Shown here: positions 934 through 28,192 of the stretch, one piece after another | Position numbering within the stretch: position 1 is the stretch's first letter | Layout: each line of letters begins with the position of its first letter | DNA from: a virus | Taxonomy: Duplodnaviria > Caudoviricetes | Virus record (IMG/VR): IMGVR_UViG_3300028581_000010 | Strand: one strand, 5' to 3' | DNA: 64,000 nucleotides | The notes under the pieces: generated by a model | What the model was told of the DNA's origin: nothing | Databases searched by the model: none | What the model saw: only the letters and a program-made list of their open reading frames with translations | Translations under genes and position numbers: made by a program

Positions 934-2645
934 GCCTCAGGTATGTCGATTTTAGACGAGAGGAACTCTTGATGTGAGATCCACACAGGTTTACCCTCGG
1001 GGTCTAGCACCATTCTATAGAGCTTGCCGTCTTCTCCCTTGCGAGAGTTGTGCACGAAGAAGTTCACAACACCAATGGTAGTAGCCTCTACCGTAGCAAG
1101 AGGGTCCAGTAGTCCGAACTGCGATTCGTTGACAGCCCGCGAAGAGTCAGGAATAGCCTCGGTGCTGTTACCGGACCAAATACACTTACCATTTCTGCGT
1201 GTAAGCAGTAGCTCTCCTGGTACCTCTGCACAGTATACCATGCCACTGTACTGCCTTCGGTTGAAACAGGTCTTGTCAGACAGCATTACTTCTTTACGGT
1301 TATTGAGCTTGGCGCGAAAATAGCGAGAGTCGGCATAGTTTACGTGCATGCCGCGCATAACCGCCAATTGTGCCACTTGGTTACGGAGGCGTTTAGACGC
1401 GGACTCATACAACCTTCCGCCGCAGGCAAGTATTCCACTGCAGTCCATTTTTGTAAGTGCGTTAAACAAGGCTTCACGTATTTCCAGACTACCTTCCATA
1501 ATCCAATCTGGAATAAATTTATCCTTTGCTTTACCAAACTGCCGAAAATAATGAGCAAAGTGCTTGCCAGTGATTATAAATCGACGACCTTGCTCGTACC
1601 TATATTGAACACCAAGGGTGTCTAGTGTACTGCGAATAATCTCAACCTCTTCAGGGTTGGATACAATAGACTTACCTATCTCTACACGGTATTCGTTACG
1701 CTTTTCATTAAAAGAATAACTGCCATCGGCCAGATAGTAACCCAGTAGTGCAGCGAAGGGAACAGTACTAAACCGCACAGCCTCTTGTATTTGAGTAGCT
1801 CTGTTCGTTTTGTTCACAAAAGGAGCAGGCTGAATCTCAATATATTCTAGCTCCTTACCTCCGACGTATGCGCCTGCGGCCAGCATATGTTTCCACCGGG
1901 CTCCGTGAGCCTCCTCTGCAGCGCGAAAGCTATACGGCGAAAAGTCTCTAACCTGTGTGTGTCGATTATACTTGGGATTCGAGGCAAACATTCTATGCGT
2001 CGGCGTCACCAGTGCATTAACATAAACATTATCGAATTCCAGCAACTCGCCATTATACTCTCCAGCAAACAGCCTGTGTGGGTGTGCGAACTGCAGCGCA
2101 CCATCAAGACAGACGCCCAGCTCGTCGACTAATGTGACGTCCGGCCAGACCTTCCAGCCTTTGCTCGTAAACACCTCGGTATCTGCAGAATGACATCCAA
2201 TACCCCCCTCACCCATCTTGCTCACCTTGTGTGCAAGCATGTACTGTTCCATTGGGTTAACACCCTCGATGTTCTGTGCTAGAGAGTTACCAACGAATAC
2301 GGACTTAACTTGAGACGTAAAGAACCCAGAGTGTAGCCAGCTTAGATTGCGCTTCTGTCTGAGCTTCATTTTAGCCTTGGCTTGTATCTTACCTGCATCG
2401 TGCTCGATGTGTTCCTTGACGTAGTCCTCGGCACCAAGAAACTTAGCGAACATTAGGTTATCGCGGTCGTCGGCATCCTCTTCACGGGAGTAGACCTTGA
2501 TCAGCTTGGCAGAAGCATCCAATAGTATCTTCGGCGTCAGATACGAGGCATTAATCTTCATGGTTTTGGACATCACTGTCGCATCTAACTTCATGTTGGT
2601 GAGGTACAGTTTAATTTCGGCGATCTTTTCCTGACGAGTCTTCAT
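930..2645 (-). CDS. Split DNA-directed RNA polymerase beta-subunit-like fragment, intein-containing (extein about 228 aa)
   Basis: Extein NPMEQYMLAHKVSKMGEGGIG|STEAIPDSSRAVNESQFGLLDPLATVEATTIGVV resembles RpoB NPLSE.THKRR.S.LGPGG...R.VH.THYGRICPIETPEG.NIGL. Confidence 0.8.
   Translation of the reverse strand: MKTRQEKIAEIKLYLTNMKLDATVMSKTMKINASYLTPKILLDASAKLIKVYSREEDADDRDNLMFAKFLGAEDYVKEHIEHDAGKIQAKAKMKLRQKRNLSWLHSGFFTSQVKSVFVGNSLAQNIEGVNPMEQYMLAHKVSKMGEGGIGCHSADTEVFTSKGWKVWPDVTLVDELGVCLDGALQFAHPHRLFAGEYNGELLEFDNVYVNALVTPTHRMFASNPKYNRHTQVRDFSPYSFRAAEEAHGARWKHMLAAGAYVGGKELEYIEIQPAPFVNKTNRATQIQEAVRFSTVPFAALLGYYLADGSYSFNEKRNEYRVEIGKSIVSNPEEVEIIRSTLDTLGVQYRYEQGRRFIITGKHFAHYFRQFGKAKDKFIPDWIMEGSLEIREALFNALTKMDCSGILACGGRLYESASKRLRNQVAQLAVMRGMHVNYADSRYFRAKLNNRKEVMLSDKTCFNRRQYSGMVYCAEVPGELLLTRRNGKCIWSGNSTEAIPDSSRAVNESQFGLLDPLATVEATTIGVVNFFVHNSRKGEDGKLYRMVLDPEGKPVWISHQEFLSSKIDIPEA
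1167..2195 (-). mobile_element. Intein (343 aa) with LAGLIDADG endonuclease in the RNAP beta-like gene
   Basis: Starts CHSADTEV, block B VTPTHRM, LAGLIDADG-like LLGYYLADGS, block F VYCAEVP, ends WSGN followed by Ser+1. Confidence 0.92.
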
Positions 2646-2653
2646 GTTGGTTT

Positions 2654-2682
2654 ATTTTAGCAAGCGCAGAAAATATTGTAAA
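2654..2682 (-). promoter_or_regulatory. Sigma70-like promoter for the RNAP beta-like gene
   Basis: TTTACA-N17-TAAAAT with TGn extension, 8 nt upstream of the ATG at 2645. Confidence 0.65.
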
Positions 2683-2726
2683 CAAAAAGCTTGCAGCCTG
2701 CTTTCCATGTGGTAATTTAAGTACAG

Positions 2727-3314
2727 ATGAACGCTAAGCAATGCACTAAATGCGCGAAGACCAAGCCCCTAGAGGACTTCTACAAGCATGGGGTGCGCAC
2801 GTATCACGGCGCCTGTAAAGACTGCATACGCCATAAGAGCCGCCGTTATCGTATAGACCACCCGGAAAAGTACAAAGCCACGCAGCAAGAACATTATCGC
2901 AAAAATAAGGATGAGATTTGTGCTAAAAATAAGGCTTACCGCGAAGCAAACCCTGAGAAAGCCAGATTTTATCATACCCGCTATATGAAGGAACGCCGCC
3001 AAGTGGACCCGAACTTTAAGTTGATTACCAACTTGCGCGGGCGCATACACGCTGCTCTGCGAGGTAGAGATAAATCTCAGACTACTAGGATATTGCTCGG
3101 GTGTACTCCCACCTATCTGAAAGAATATCTCGAATCTAGATTTACAGATGGTATGACTTGGGATAACTATGGAAAGTGGCATGTAGACCATATTGAGCCG
3201 TGCGACAGCTTCGATTTTACAAAAGAAGCTGCACAGCGCGCATGCTTTCATTACACAAACTTACAACCCCTATGGGCTAAGGACAATATCAGGAAAGGAA
3301 ATAAAAAATCGTGA
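2727..3314 (+). CDS. Free-standing HNH homing endonuclease
   Basis: CTKC..CKDC zinc knuckle, basic helical repeats, WHVDHIEPC...HYTNLQPLWAKDNIRKGN. Confidence 0.92.
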   Translation: MNAKQCTKCAKTKPLEDFYKHGVRTYHGACKDCIRHKSRRYRIDHPEKYKATQQEHYRKNKDEICAKNKAYREANPEKARFYHTRYMKERRQVDPNFKLITNLRGRIHAALRGRDKSQTTRILLGCTPTYLKEYLESRFTDGMTWDNYGKWHVDHIEPCDSFDFTKEAAQRACFHYTNLQPLWAKDNIRKGNKKS

Positions 3315-3499
3315 CATTTGAGTTCACTTACGACGACGAAGCCGAAGAGATAACAATCATCTACGACAACAGCACTATTCTTAAAGCCAGCAGCGAAGAT
3401 GGAGATGCCTCCTTTCGCCACTTCAGCAAGATAGATGACGAGGACGTTGAGCACATTCTCAAGAACCTCTGCAAGCAGGTGTTGAAGCTGTACGCCTAA
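3311..3499 (+). CDS. Small acidic hypothetical protein
   Basis: GTGA overlap with the upstream stop; 62 aa. Confidence 0.65.
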   Translation: MTFEFTYDDEAEEITIIYDNSTILKASSEDGDASFRHFSKIDDEDVEHILKNLCKQVLKLYA

Positions 3500-3504
3500 T
3501 AGCG

Positions 3505-3924
3505 ATGAACAAGACTGAACGTGAGCGCCCAAACTGGGACGTCTATGGTATGTCGTTAGCGTATGCCGCGCGGCTACGCAGCCCCGACCCCCACTATCAG
3601 GTAGGAGCCTGCGCTTTGCGCCAGGATCGCTCTGTAGCGGCCACAGGCTACAATGGGGCACCGGCAGGGGTAGAGATAGATTGGACTGACCGTATAAAAC
3701 GCCGTGGTAAAGTTATACACGCAGAGAAAAACTGCCTCCGCTATACGAAGCGTGGAGAAGTACACTATTTGTATTGTACACTTTCACCTTGCGCTAAATG
3801 CTTCGAAATGATCCGGTTACACGGTGTAAAGGAGATAATTTTCTCGGAAATTTACGAAATGGACATGACAGCGCTTGCCATAGCCCCATCGCACAATATT
3901 ATATGCAGACAACTCAAGATATGA
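3505..3924 (+). CDS. dCMP deaminase
   Basis: RSPDP..QVGAC, GYNG, IHAEKNCL, SPCAKC zinc motifs. Confidence 0.93.
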   Translation: MNKTERERPNWDVYGMSLAYAARLRSPDPHYQVGACALRQDRSVAATGYNGAPAGVEIDWTDRIKRRGKVIHAEKNCLRYTKRGEVHYLYCTLSPCAKCFEMIRLHGVKEIIFSEIYEMDMTALAIAPSHNIICRQLKI

Positions 3925-19692: not shown

Positions 19693-22501
19693 TTAGCCGA
19701 CGCGGTCGCGGATGCCTTCCACGATCTTGGTGATGTGACCTTTCTCCAGAATGCTTCCGGAGACGGGGCCGCTTTCCTTGATCAGGTGGTCGAACACAAC
19801 CTGCGATGCTTCGGCGAAGACCTCTTCGCTTGTCTTCTGCTTGCCCTTCATGAGATCGATGTGATCGGTCAGAGAAGTGGCCGCAGTCATGAGGTCCTCG
19901 GTGGTGATTTTGCCTTCGATGTCCGCACCGTGGCGGAAGATCACTGCGCCTTTCGCACGATTCACAGCCTCCAGGATGAAGGCCGGAACGAACCCGGCGA
20001 GGGACTTGCCGACGGCGGCCAGTTCCACATCAGGGTGCAGCAGCGAGTTCCCGCTCTTATTGCGGGCGTACACCTTCACGAATTCCGCGGCTGCTTCCTC
20101 CTTCGGAGGAGTCAGAATGATCGAGCTGCTGATACGTCCGGGACGGATGTTCACAGGGTTGATCACTGCCGGGTTGTTCGAGGTGACGATGGTGATGATG
20201 GGCGTCGTCTTCGAGTCAATGCCATCGAGCGCCGTGGAGACAGCGTTGATGAACTCGTTGCGGTCGCCGGAGAGAACTTGATCAATCAGTTATTGTTATC
20301 GCGTGGGCTCTTTATCCCTCGCTTCAGCGGCTTTATGTATACCCGCTGCTCAGACTATATCATCAGCCTTTCGGCTGCCTGTATTTCGTGGCGGAATCGG
20401 CTGTCATACCTATCCGCTAGTCGTTAAACCTCCGCACTACTTTGTAGACTTCATGCGTTTGGTAATTGATTGTCCTTGTTTTGACTCAAGGGTTTTCCAA
20501 TTTTAAACAGGTTTTATGAGGACTATGATGCAATTTGTATTGCATTGACGGTAGAACCCATGGTTTTACTAAATTTGTGAACAAATCGCGAGATTTTGCT
20601 GGAACGTACAACATATTATTGCCGTGCACTGTTGTAGTTATTCCGAACTTTTCTTCAAGGAACTTCTGAAATTTTTCTAGGTCTTCTTCGGTAAAGGCAC
20701 AGGTGGCTATATTGTAGGTGTAGCCATCATTGTGCCCGTCATCCATTAAAAGAACCGCTAGGCTCCTCGCATCAAACCATTCCAGTATTTCATTGCTGAC
20801 CACCTTTTTACCGTTAGGATAGAGGTGCGCGTGAATTTCTGTAAAGTTTGGATGGCACACTGTTCCGAATTGATACGTTTCGTACACTTTCCCTGTGCGT
20901 TTGTCGGGCGTAGCCTTTTTGGGCTTGTTGTACGAAGTCATATCCTTGAAGACACTTGCTTTGTAGTCGAAAAGTTCTTTTTGTATAGCACAATGGGCAA
21001 AGCTCAAGCTGGCGTGATTTCCTAGCCGATTCTTCTTTAGGGAAGAGTCGCCCAGTAGTGTGCCTGCCAACACAGATTTTTGCTCATCGGTCATACGCCA
21101 TTCCTTATACGGATATGGTTTTCTTTCACCTTTATGGAACTTAGCCATATTGTGCTGAATTGCCGTAAGGCTCTCACCCATCAGCTCAGCTATCTCTTCA
21201 CGAGAATACTGGCCAGTGGATAAAAGCTGCTCGAAGCGCTCAACATCAAAAGGTTTAGTTCTTTGTGGCTTCTGAATGCCCAGTTCCCGTTTTAGGCGTT
21301 TATAGGAGTCTAGGGACAGCCCCAACTCTTTCGCGATTTGTTTATTGCGCAAGCCCTTGTTCTCGAGCTCGGCAATTCTTTCTTTAGTAATACCGCTGTA
21401 GTCATATTTACGTGGAATGAATTTTACTTTACGTATTCTCATTCCACTACAATACATCTACTGTTCCACTTTGTCAAGTAAAAAATCCTCCGCAAACACA
21501 ACGGCCGGAGCGTACTGCTTCGCGGTCTCGAGGGTTTCCACCAGCATCGAAGGAGTCTTCAGATAGATGAAGGTCCAGCCGTTGTCGACGCAGAGTTTGG
21601 CCGTAACGCGGGCCGTGAGCGTCTTTCCAGTCCCGAACTCGCCGCTGAGCAGCAAGCCTGTCTTGAGGGAGATGCCATTCGCGTGGCAGGCCTCGGGCTG
21701 AGTGATGCGATTCCAGACCTCGTTCTCGATGCGCATGCGGACTTCCCGGTTGAGGACCAGGTCGTTGAGCTGTGTGCCGCGGGTGTCCATGAACTCCGGC
21801 GAGTTGGTCTCGGGATTGTAATTTTCTCCCTTGGTGAGCCAGCCGTAATCGCAGATGATTGCGTGGCCCTTGTAGAGCGAGTCCTCTTTGAGGATCTGCT
21901 CCATGGTGTGCAGAATCTCATCGACCTGCGGGCTGTACTTCTGTTTGACCACGCCGGTGATGACGAGGGTTTTGTAGCTCGTGAAGACGGGCTGCAGGCA
22001 GCCACCTTCCCAGGCGGGCGGTTCGACCTTGCAGTACGGAACCTGCTCGGTGGTGCCGACGCCGGTGCGAATCTGCACCATGACCGGAGGGCGTTCACCG
22101 AAGAAGCTCTGCTGACCGCGGAGCTGCGAGAATCCCATGACCTTCTTCATGGCCTTGTAGAAGGCAACCATGCCGTCCACGGGAATGCAGGTGAAGCTGC
22201 GGTTGTAGTTGAGCTCCTTCTGTTTGGCGTCGCGCGAGGCCTTCAGCGCGAAGATGGCGCGGTCTTCATCCCAGCCCTTGGGCATGATGATGCTTTTGAT
22301 GCGCCCCGTGGGGTCGTTCTCGACAGTGAGCTCGTCGCTGCCCATGGAGGCGGCGAACAGAGCGTCCTTGGAGATGCCCATCTTTGCGCAAAAATCAGCG
22401 AGCGAGAGCCCGGCTGCCTTTGCCATGGTTTCGAGTGAGGAGACGTCGATCTCGGGGACGCCTTTTGTCTTTCCTGACGATGATACTGTTTTATCAGCCA
22501 T
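19693..22501 (-). CDS. AAA+ ATPase (about 536 aa) split by a group I intron; exon 1 22501-21485, exon 2 20286-19693
   Basis: Walker A GEFGTGKT in exon 1. Splicing joins VVFAED|IDQVLSG (Walker B). Exon 2 carries ALDGIDSK, VTSNNP and the arginine finger IRPGRI. Confidence 0.9.
20287..21484 (-). mobile_element. Group I intron (1198 nt) carrying a LAGLIDADG homing endonuclease in the P1 loop
   Basis: Exon ends in U (GAGGAU), intron ends in G. IGS GUCCUC at 20518-20523 pairs with GAGGAU with a U.G wobble. Core-like elements AAAUUGGAAAA, AAUCAAUUACCAA, UUUAACGACUAG, AUGAUAUAGUCUG. Confidence 0.92.
20486..21442 (-). CDS. Intron-encoded LAGLIDADG homing endonuclease with N-terminal HTH repeats
   Basis: LAGTLLGDSSL and LAVLLMDDGH motifs; start probably ATG 21442 behind TTGACA-N17-TATTGT-N6. 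Confidence 0.9.
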   Translation of the reverse strand: MRIRKVKFIPRKYDYSGITKERIAELENKGLRNKQIAKELGLSLDSYKRLKRELGIQKPQRTKPFDVERFEQLLSTGQYSREEIAELMGESLTAIQHNMAKFHKGERKPYPYKEWRMTDEQKSVLAGTLLGDSSLKKNRLGNHASLSFAHCAIQKELFDYKASVFKDMTSYNKPKKATPDKRTGKVYETYQFGTVCHPNFTEIHAHLYPNGKKVVSNEILEWFDARSLAVLLMDDGHNDGYTYNIATCAFTEEDLEKFQKFLEEKFGITTTVHGNNMLYVPAKSRDLFTNLVKPWVLPSMQYKLHHSPHKTCLKLENP

Positions 22502-24258: not shown

Positions 24259-26062
24259 GGCTCAGTGCGGCGGCGAGGCGCCCCCGAATTTCTCCGAGTG
24301 TTTGGAATTTGACCAGGTGTCCGTTCAGGAACACCGTCTCCAGGCAGCCACCCTTTTCTTCTTCGGGTGTGCAGCAATCTTTGAGGACGTACTCGCCGTC
24401 GATCAGGTCAACACGCAGCAAGCCCTTGGCAGACTTCTTCATGCCATCGTCGGTAACCGGATCCTTGAACATCTCACGAGGCTCGTATTCAACTTCGCCG
24501 TAGGTGGCTTTTATTGCTACTTGTATGGGGTTAACTTATCCCATTTTCGTTCTAAGTGCTCAGTTTTATTGCAGGCTTTTGCCCCAGTTCATAATAAAAT
24601 TATATGACTTTACAATAAAGGTGATAAGCAGAAACTTAGCCAATTTTAATGGACTATATCATCATCCTTTCGGATGCCGGAGGCTGTGGGCTTACCGTAG
24701 TATCCCTAGTCTCTGAACCTTCCACGAACTGCCCCGTGGCTCGGCTGCTGATTGTGTGTTGAAACACTTCCCAGCAATTCTTCCGGTTTGCATTAAATAT
24801 TTCTACTTAATGGGGCTAGCAATTAACCCAAACGTGTCGCGAGTATTCATTTGATACGTGTAGCTGCCGATACCGTAGACGACATTCGTGCTCGCGTAGC
24901 CTTTTTCTTTAAGGCGCTTAGTTGTATCCGCAGCTCTGTCTTTTGTGATAGCATCTCCGTAGATGGCTCCGATGTGCGGGTCGAGTACCTTGTAACCCTT
25001 GCTGTTGAGCGTCGTGCCGAACAGCTCACCGAGCGTCTCGATCAGACCGAGCCGAATGGTGTGCATCTCCGCTGGGTTGAGCTTCGCCATCTGTGGGTGG
25101 AAGCCGTCGTAGCCGCACAAGCAGTCCACGGGATCCGTCCAGAAGCTGTCCGGGCGAATCACGAGCTTGCCGTTGCGCGCCATGATCTTCTCCTTCAGGG
25201 CAGGCAGAATCACCGTAAGCACATGAGGCATGCTCCACGTGTCAGACACGATGGAGATGATGCCTTCGGGGTAGAGGTCAAGCAGCCGCTCGAACGTCTC
25301 GAGCTCGCCTTCCTTGGTCCCCATGCACATTACGGAGTGCTCCGTAGCAGGCACCGAGCCTCCCACGAGTTCTTTGGTCACGTCCGCGCCGTAGTACTCC
25401 TCAAGGAACGTAATTGCTGGAAACGTATCCGTGCCTGTGAAGGACAGCAGGTGACCAGCTCCGCTCGTGCACGCGCTCTCGAAGGAGCTCATGCCGCGCA
25501 TGGAGAAGTCGTGCCCTTGCCACATGACGAAGTCCAGATCGTCCGCCGTTTCATACGCTCCTTGGATAAGTTCCTTCTTGAACTCATGTGCGAGTGTGGC
25601 GCTCGTGCAAGGCTGCCATGTCGTGCAGCTGATGATCGTTTCGAGATAGTTGACCAGCCATGCGGCATGGTCTTCCGTCTCACGAATGGTGAACATAGGC
25701 ACGCGTACCGGTACCAAGCTTCCCTCGGGAAGGGCCTTGATCTCCAGTGGCATATACCCCTGGTCGTGCAACTGTTCGAGATGCTCGTAGGTTATGGCCT
25801 TTGGCCCGAGCGTGCAGCTGACGAGTCTGGAGTAGCTCGCTTTGACGTCCTCGAAGGGAAGCTCAAAGAAACCCTTGTTCCAGCCTTCGATGATATATTT
25901 CAGGATTGCGTACTGCAACCCGAAGAACACAATCTTGTTTGTGCTCGGAATCCTGCTTTTACGGGGCGTGCAGTTGTTGTACAACGACGTCATCCCGGAA
26001 GGATACATTCTGTAGTGTGGGACTTTGTAAAAGTCCACCTGTGTAAGTGGTTGTGGAAGCAT
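24251..26062 (-). CDS. Nicotinamide phosphoribosyltransferase-family enzyme (Nampt/Namat-like, about 501 aa) split by a group I intron; exon 1 26062-24826, exon 2 24519-24251
   Basis: DFYKVPH..MYP, HDFSMRG, GTDT, VPATEHS, SIVSDT, VIRPDS, IYGDAIT, GIGSYTYQ. Splicing gives TRDTFG(L)AIKAT...KDP.TD...KKSAKG. Confidence 0.93.
24520..24825 (-). mobile_element. ORF-less group I intron (306 nt)
   Basis: P1: exon GGGU pairs with GCCC (U.G at the splice site). P10: AUUGCUA pairs exactly with exon 2 UAGCAAU. P AAUUGCUGGGAA, Q AAUCAGCAG, R GUUCAGAGACUA, S AUGAUAUAGUCC; terminal G. Confidence 0.95.
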
Positions 26063-28115: not shown

Positions 28116-28192
28116 TGGTGTGCCCGACAGGGCTCGAACCTGTGACCAGCGCTTTAGAAAAACGCTGCTCTATCCAACTGAGCTACGGGCAC
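28116..28192 (-). tRNA. tRNA-Arg (anticodon UCU) with encoded CCA
   Basis: GTGCCCG/CGGGCAC acceptor stem, GCTC/GAGC D stem, anticodon loop TT-TCT-AA, T arm ACAGG-TTCGAGC-CCTGT, 3' ACCA. Confidence 0.95.

Follow-up and report, generated by a model that had tools for sequence, protein, structure and literature searches.

We analysed a 64,000-nt stretch of DNA, hereafter the window, from IMG/VR virus record IMGVR_UViG_3300028581_000010 (Duplodnaviria; Caudoviricetes), which belongs to a giant lake-water phage. On its minus strand, two reading frames that together resemble an AAA+ ATPase flank a gene for a LAGLIDADG homing endonuclease, and the whole locus is best read as a single ATPase gene into which a mobile group I intron has inserted (Table 1). 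The upstream frame ends its conserved portion with GTG TTT GCG GAG GAT at 21485, while the downstream frame takes up the homology with ATT GAT CAA at 20286. The frame is open through both exons, and joining them restores FAED|ID across a predicted ligated mRNA junction of GCGGAGGAU|AUUGAUCAAG (GAGGAU|AUUGAU), giving a predicted spliced ATPase of 536 residues. The TSNN and RPGR motifs of exon 2, which we take to be sensor 1 and the arginine finger, are lacking from exon 1 alone. Left unspliced, the exon-1 open reading frame (ORF) comprises 347 codons (22501..21458, minus strand), running through APAVVFAED into eight unrelated codons and a UAG stop. In relatives, the exon-1 frame is likewise closed 0 to 11 codons inside the intron.

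Table 1. Predicted features of the interrupted ATPase locus, followed by other elements of the window (positions are those of the window)
Feature	Position	Strand	Description
AAA+ ATPase exon 1	22501-21485	minus	339 codons; N-terminal domain, Walker A GEFGTGKT, Walker B VVFAED
P1 5' strand	21490..21485	minus	GAGGAU, last six exon-1 bases; 5' splice site after U21485; pairs with 20523..20518
Group I intron	21484-20287	minus	1198 nt; IA-type core without P2; last base omega-G at 20287
UAG closing exon-1 frame	21458..21460	minus	8 codons inside intron (FLLDKVEQ, then stop); adjoins endonuclease AUG
LAGLIDADG homing endonuclease gene	21457..20486	minus	323 codons, in loop L1; N-terminal helix-turn-helix region and I-SceI-like double-motif domain
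Internal guide sequence (P1 3' strand)	20523..20518	minus	GUCCUC, within endonuclease codons S-P-H
ORF/ribozyme overlap	20523..20486	minus	38 nt: guide, J1/3, P3 5' strand, J3/4, P4 5' strand, J4/5, P5 5' strand
Ribozyme core P3-P9.1	20511..20301	minus	helices hand-defined on the window
P3	20511-20507/20382-20378	minus	
P4	20502-20497/20469-20464	minus	
P5	20491-20487/20478-20474	minus	
P6	20463-20461/20430-20428	minus	
P6a	20457-20454/20436-20433	minus	
P7	20422-20418/20357-20353	minus	
P7.1	20417-20413/20395-20391	minus	
P8	20377-20373/20368-20364	minus	
P9	20348-20343/20330-20325	minus	
P9.1	20322-20316/20307-20301	minus	
AAA+ ATPase exon 2	20286-19693	minus	197 codons and stop; starts IDQVLSGDRNE; TSNN and RPGR motifs, C-terminal domain
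Second group I intron	24520-24825	minus	306 nt, ORF-less, local P1
tRNA-Arg(UCU) gene	28116-28192	minus	Rfam 65 bits; ARAGORN

The position of the junction was established from uninterrupted homologues. A tblastn search of each exon separately against 50,697 phage records matched 63 records per exon. In all five records where both exons were listed, the two matches abut with zero gap or overlap (LR756500, 354898/354897; LR756511, 142409/142408; PhiW-14, 154120/154121; Frozen, 15263/15264; CRPAP1904, 51823/51822), and exon-1 matches stop at residue 339 in the phage records among the matches listed. The spliced product aligned with five uninterrupted homologues without an indel and with F[AC]ED|[IV]D conserved. 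The closest homologue in a collection of 5.8 billion proteins, P0018 (537 aa), is continuous, with 60% identity to exon 1 and 65% to exon 2 (its residues 347 to 537), and its junction region reads uninterrupted as CVVFCEDIDRVLSGE (FCEDIDRV). Since the exon matches abut in uninterrupted homologues, the junction GAGGAU|AUUGAU is fixed to the nucleotide, which upholds an earlier, sequence-only reading of this locus that had placed the insertion within the Walker B motif, at VVFAED|ID.

Profile searches likewise treat the two exons as parts of one protein. Exon 1 covers positions 1 to 62 of PF00004 (20.2 bits) and exon 2 covers positions 79 to 128 (18.7 bits), each separately just below the cut-off of 21.2, and uninterrupted homologues carry PF00004. 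Exon 1 similarly covers positions 23 to 293 of the phrog_10440 profile and exon 2 positions 294 to 459. A single AAA module thus extends across both exons, with Walker A, Walker B, and the second region of homology all present. A megablast search of the locus against phages returned no match. Judging from these alignments, the reading frames at 22501-21458 and 20166-19693, which are called as two genes, are one ATPase gene, and the same is true of their counterparts in related metagenomic phages. Since such halves belong to one gene, gene catalogues miscount them.

About 200 nt without an ORF separate the endonuclease ORF from the exon-2 frame. A search with the Rfam group I model, RF00028, returned a match at 20551..20331 (40.2 bits; E value of 8.6e-7 over the whole 64-kb window), and typical strings for P7 and for the joining segment J8/7 were seen in the core (AACGACUAG and GAUGAUAUAGUCUGA). 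The same model scored 36.5 to 48.7 bits downstream of the ORF in three relatives with an intron in the ATPase gene (L013, L016, and L024), the overall span for relatives being 33 to 48.7 bits. We mapped the helices onto an alignment of three distinct ATPase-intron cores, with P7 written as a pseudoknot. In this alignment, 99.4% of cells were paired and two-sided changes were found in 20 of 53 pairs, a number reached in none of 500 shuffles and compared with 1 to 3 in slid controls. A covariance model built from these three cores, R2, recovered related cores at 64 to 72 bits in another group of phage contigs as well as in Bacteroides phage PhiCrAssBcn18. Rfam left the PhiCrAssBcn18 core and the AT-rich introns of helicase genes undetected, while R2 detected both. 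An alignment of eight sequences had 96.1% of cells paired and 33 of 48 pairs compensatory, values that are to be read with the caveat that this alignment was fitted to the model. A MAFFT alignment of six cores was left unused because P6 to P8 of the helicase group were misaligned, and blastn searches of the core against phages produced only short, chance-level pieces. With its strong core covariation and the significance of the Rfam match within 64 kb, the locus bears out the group I assignment of the sequence-only reading, for which a covariance-model search had been the proposed check.

The architecture of the core is also informative. One covarying P7.1/P7.1a hairpin lies between P7 and P3', followed further on by P9.1, while P2 and a separate P7.2 are absent. 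In subgroup IA2, to which the T4 td and nrdB introns belong, both P7.1 and P7.2 would be expected in this interval, with P9.1 beyond P9. The single covarying hairpin between P7 and P3' identifies the core as IA type, an assignment made without subgroup-specific models and therefore to "IA-type" only. Since only six bases, AUAAAA, lie between the guide and P3, there is no P2. A P6b helix (20447-20437) was also proposed and was dropped, as it is not maintained in relatives.

P1 of this intron is closed over a long distance. The internal guide sequence (IGS), GUCCUC, lies 961 nt past the 5' splice site, in agreement with the approximately 960 nt first estimated, and can pair with the whole of the terminal exon hexamer, the pair at the splice site being U.G. 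The endonuclease ORF is confined to the interval from the 5' splice site to P5, and hence sits in loop L1 as had been proposed. All four ATPase-gene introns (the window, L013, L016, and L024) combine GAGGAU with GUCCUC. Among related introns in a DnaB-like helicase gene, the exon sequence AAGGAU goes with the guide GUCCUU in L020 and L021, and CGUGAU goes with GUCACG in L019 and PhiCrAssBcn18. In every related intron, the guide lies beyond the endonuclease ORF and immediately precedes J1/3-P3. Across these three exon/guide types, three of the six P1 pairs show two-sided changes, and P1 bridges as few as 253 nt between splice site and guide in L024 and as many as 1290 nt in L019. Entire precursors were also folded without constraints in ViennaRNA, a thermodynamic modelling without pseudoknots that was weighed as supporting evidence only. 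All six P1 pairs were present in the minimum free energy (MFE) structure of each of the four ATPase-gene introns. For these introns, the P1 pair probability was 0.5 to 0.99 with flanks of 8/3, 30/20, or 100/100 nt. In the MFE structures, upstream exon bases also find partners in the 3' tail of the intron or in the 3' exon, probably an end-closure artefact of the folding program.

The protein encoded in L1 matches LAGLIDADG_2 (PF03161) over residues 128 to 281 (111.7 bits against a cut-off of 25; E value of 4.8e-32) as well as phrog_11023, and its first ~120 residues give weak helix-turn-helix (HTH) matches. Its homologues include PDB 6x1j (E value of 1.4e-14) and I-SceI (E value of 4e-12). Both LAGLIDADG motifs are intact, and LLGD (D137) and MDDG (D239 and D240) are invariant in seven relatives; on these similarities the enzyme is predicted to be an I-SceI-type monomer. 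Metagenomic relatives of the endonuclease are 54 to 57% identical and keep the same order of an exon-1-like gene, the LAGLIDADG gene, ~250 nt, and an exon-2-like gene. No match to the endonuclease came from a pattern scan of IMG/VR. A second in-frame AUG lies five codons downstream of the first (21442), and public gene calls begin there (P0004, 318 aa).

The sequence-only reading further held that the tail of this ORF doubles as the IGS and the start of the core, and the last 38 nt do supply the IGS through the 5' strand of P5. They comprise the final codons SPHKTCLKLENP and the stop codon, UGA (20488-20486), which falls in the 5' strand of P5. The conserved part of the protein ends with MQYKLH, after which relatives diverge, and the distance by which the ORF runs past the start of the guide varies among them. 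It is 0 nt in L019, where the stop precedes the guide; 10, 11, and 11 nt in L021, L013, and L016, respectively, with a UAA in J1/3; 20 nt in L020; 38 nt in the window; and ~92 nt in P0006, whose tail (...IGLKLENP...GQSITNYTK...VV) is the translated core through P6a. The stop that relatives carry just after the IGS, the UAA in J1/3, is out of frame in the window (GUCCUCAUAAAAC versus GUCCUCGAUAAAU), hence the 38-nt overlap. The core creep hypothesis of Edgell, Chalamcharla and Belfort (PMC3073962) predicts a variable 3' extension of intron ORFs into the core. As far as these sequences indicate, the series of ORF ends, from 0 to about 92 nt into the core, fits that model.

Relatives of the intron point to a mobile element. 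Intron-less alleles of the host genes are the majority, and the endonuclease-bearing intron was found in four lineages. Two metagenome contigs, L024 (5042-5531) and L025, with a 57% identical exon 1, carry the ATPase-gene intron with only a ~250-nt remnant of the endonuclease, in which residues ~5 to 34 are fused to residues ~267 to 310 with an in-frame stop. Their ribozyme is intact (238 bits), and they would represent the degenerate stage of the homing cycle that is expected for a mobile intron. Related introns with the same ORF-in-L1 layout split the DnaB-like helicase gene after ...KD or ...RD (L019, L020, L021, and L027). The last of these is the cultured, crAss-like PhiCrAssBcn18 (OQ221553.1, locus 2410-3617), for which the GenBank annotation gives two "replicative DNA helicase" coding sequences and a hypothetical protein, with no intron. 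In Acinetobacter phages, relatives of the endonuclease are free-standing genes that follow an intact helicase gene and have no ribozyme. One of these, in Acinetobacter phage vB_Ab_01_KEN_01 (L026; PP841127.1, 2492-3202), encodes a ~30% identical LAGLIDADG protein directly after an intact DnaB-like helicase gene and possibly represents this endonuclease lineage in free-standing form.

Altogether, we consider it highly probable that the locus holds a mobile IA-type group I intron without P2, inserted in the Walker B block of an AAA+ ATPase gene of the phage, between the ED and ID codons, with P1 closing across the endonuclease gene. From the anatomy and its conservation we infer splicing chemistry, endonuclease activity, and homing as follows. 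The ATPase gene would be transcribed through the intron, and ribosomes translating exon 1 would halt at the UAG eight codons inside it. The ribozyme, which makes up the last 237 nt of the intron, would fold, and GUCCUC would pair with GAGGAU 961 nt upstream to form a P1 with U.G at the splice site and the entire endonuclease gene as its loop. Following guanosine attack, the freed exon would then attack the bond after G20287, joining GAGGAU to AUUGAU and yielding the 536-residue ATPase with the TSNN and RPGR motifs of exon 2. The endonuclease encoded in L1 would cut intron-less alleles in co-infecting relatives, and repair would copy the intron in.

Some observations weigh against this interpretation. 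The RF00028 score is below the Rfam gathering score of 50; the model expects a local P1/P2, which the intron is without, and those positions were aligned to a coding hairpin. P1 is invariant among the ATPase-gene introns, so that only the related introns in the helicase gene contribute covariation to it, and unconstrained folds of the AT-rich helicase introns give a P1 probability of only ~0.1. P10 is weak, with 2 to 4 bp possible (UGAU with AUCA in the window), and unconserved. Finally, the passage of the ORF through the IGS to P5 could hinder folding.

It is conceivable that the intron is decaying, with an inactive ribozyme or endonuclease and an ATPase gene that is a pseudogene in this phage. 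The creep of the ORF 38 nt into the core, the sub-threshold Rfam score, and the deletion of the endonuclease that one relative has already undergone would all suit such a history. However, both exons are intact and match an uninterrupted homologue end to end at 60 to 65% identity, all core helices pair, and both LAGLIDADG catalytic motifs are preserved, and we therefore regard decay as very unlikely. We give slightly less credence still to an ATPase gene that was split and never rejoined, with the ribozyme a relic and the halves made as separate polypeptides that possibly associate, the situation known for phage genes that free-standing endonucleases have divided. In public assemblies the halves are indeed called as separate genes, and exon 1 has a stop of its own eight codons past the junction. 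Exon 2, however, has no start codon at the junction; its first in-frame start, GTG at 20166, is 40 codons in and falls inside the TSNNPAVINP block, so that most of the motif would be lost. Moreover, the IGS tracks the exon sequence, and across lineages that share only 54 to 57% identity in their endonucleases the core keeps 99% pairing and has 20 compensatory pairs, which shows selection on the RNA fold. The least probable alternative is a genuine intron whose P1 is made by another guide near the 5' splice site, with the ORF in a P2-like loop and the GUCCUC at 20523 a coincidence. The Rfam alignment does assign P1 to a local hairpin (AUGCAAU/AUUGCAU) that closely precedes GUCCUC. That hairpin, however, lies within the MQYKLH codons and has no splice site in it, and GAGGAU has no possible partner anywhere in the first 500 nt of the intron. 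The only other candidates, at intron positions 532 and 730, depend on G.U pairs and are unconserved, the 6 nt between GUCCUC and P3 leave no room for P2, and each of the three exon types has its exact complement at the same position.

The overlap of the ORF end with the IGS to P5 implies that endonuclease translation and ribozyme folding should exclude each other on one RNA. In the window, the exon-1 UAG stands immediately before the endonuclease AUG (UAGAUG, 21455-21460, minus strand), an arrangement with which termination-reinitiation coupling is possible and which is not shared by relatives. We can only speculate that the layout acts as a switch, a suggestion we think improbable. Ribosomes might re-initiate at UAGAUG on unspliced RNA and run through the IGS and P3 to P5, such that endonuclease synthesis would both report and prolong the unspliced state, and the HTH-LAGLIDADG protein might possibly serve as a maturase that helps to close the 1-kb P1. 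This idea is drawn from the anatomy alone, and the relatives are without the UAGAUG overlap.

Beyond the ATPase locus, the window contains a second group I intron and a tRNA-Arg(UCU) gene (Table 1). The second intron (RF00028, 66.4 bits) lies in phase 1 in a nicotinamide phosphoribosyltransferase-like gene, where splicing would give ...TRDTFG-L-AIKATYGEVEYEPREMFKDP, and it scores 30 bits against R2.

The sequence-only reading had considered both an AAA+ ATPase host and an L1-located ORF overlapping the core to be unusual. The first part stands, in that the literature searched contained no account of any phage AAA+ ATPase gene carrying a group I intron. The second does not, given that P1-located ORFs and core overlaps have precedents (PMC3073962, PMC4964425) and that PhiCrAssBcn18 has the same L1 layout. 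Its premise that phage group I introns are mostly reported in DNA-metabolism, terminase, lysin, and a few structural genes has been overtaken by recent surveys (PMC7886860, PMC12880540), which report phage introns in many gene classes and in numerous essential genes; the novelty of the host gene is accordingly only modest. What is new here is the host gene class (an AAA+ ATPase, in its Walker B block) and the natural series of ORF 3' ends. A related intron/endonuclease lineage in conserved motifs of two ATPase genes, with guides re-tuned to each exon, provides a clean natural case of host-gene change. The series of ORF ends supplies the variable 3' extension predicted by core creep, alongside a stage with an intact ribozyme and a deleted endonuclease. 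These findings leave the known mechanism unchanged, and their value is mainly that of a well-documented comparative series.

Several known systems share parts of this arrangement. The phage T4 td intron with I-TevI (PMC3073962) is likewise a phage IA-type intron in an essential gene, its ORF 3' end overlaps the core by 20 nt, and the conflict between translation and splicing has been discussed for it (PMC3073962). Unlike the intron described here, it has its ORF in P6, a local P1, a GIY-YIG enzyme, and a thymidylate synthase host gene. ORFs in the P1 loop are known from the large-subunit ribosomal DNA intron of Physarum polycephalum with I-PpoI (PMC3073962, Table 1) and from the fungal mitochondrial cox3-i2 IA1 intron, which carries a LAGLIDADG gene there (PMC4964425). 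In both, P1 must close over about 1 kb, but these are eukaryotic nuclear or mitochondrial introns, and I-PpoI is a His-Cys box enzyme without core overlap. The tRNA-fMet intron of Synechocystis PCC 6803 with I-SspI (PMC3073962, Table 1) is a bacterial-type group I intron with a P1-located endonuclease ORF that also overlaps the core, by 61 nt in P1/P2 (PMC3073962), whereas here the overlap spans the IGS to P5 and there is no P2. It differs further in its PD-(D/E)XK enzyme, its tRNA host gene, and its cellular rather than phage setting. Close parallels are also the helicase-gene introns of PhiCrAssBcn18 and its metagenomic relatives L019 to L021. They differ in their DnaB-like helicase host (KD|C or RD|A), in their guides, and in ORFs that end 0 to 20 nt past the IGS start rather than 38 nt. 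In common with the ATPase-gene intron, they have a related core (64 to 72 bits to the ATPase-intron model), a related HTH-LAGLIDADG endonuclease (31 to 37% identity), an ORF between the 5' splice site and an IGS that directly precedes P3 with no P2, and an insertion site behind the Asp GAU codon of a conserved ATPase motif.

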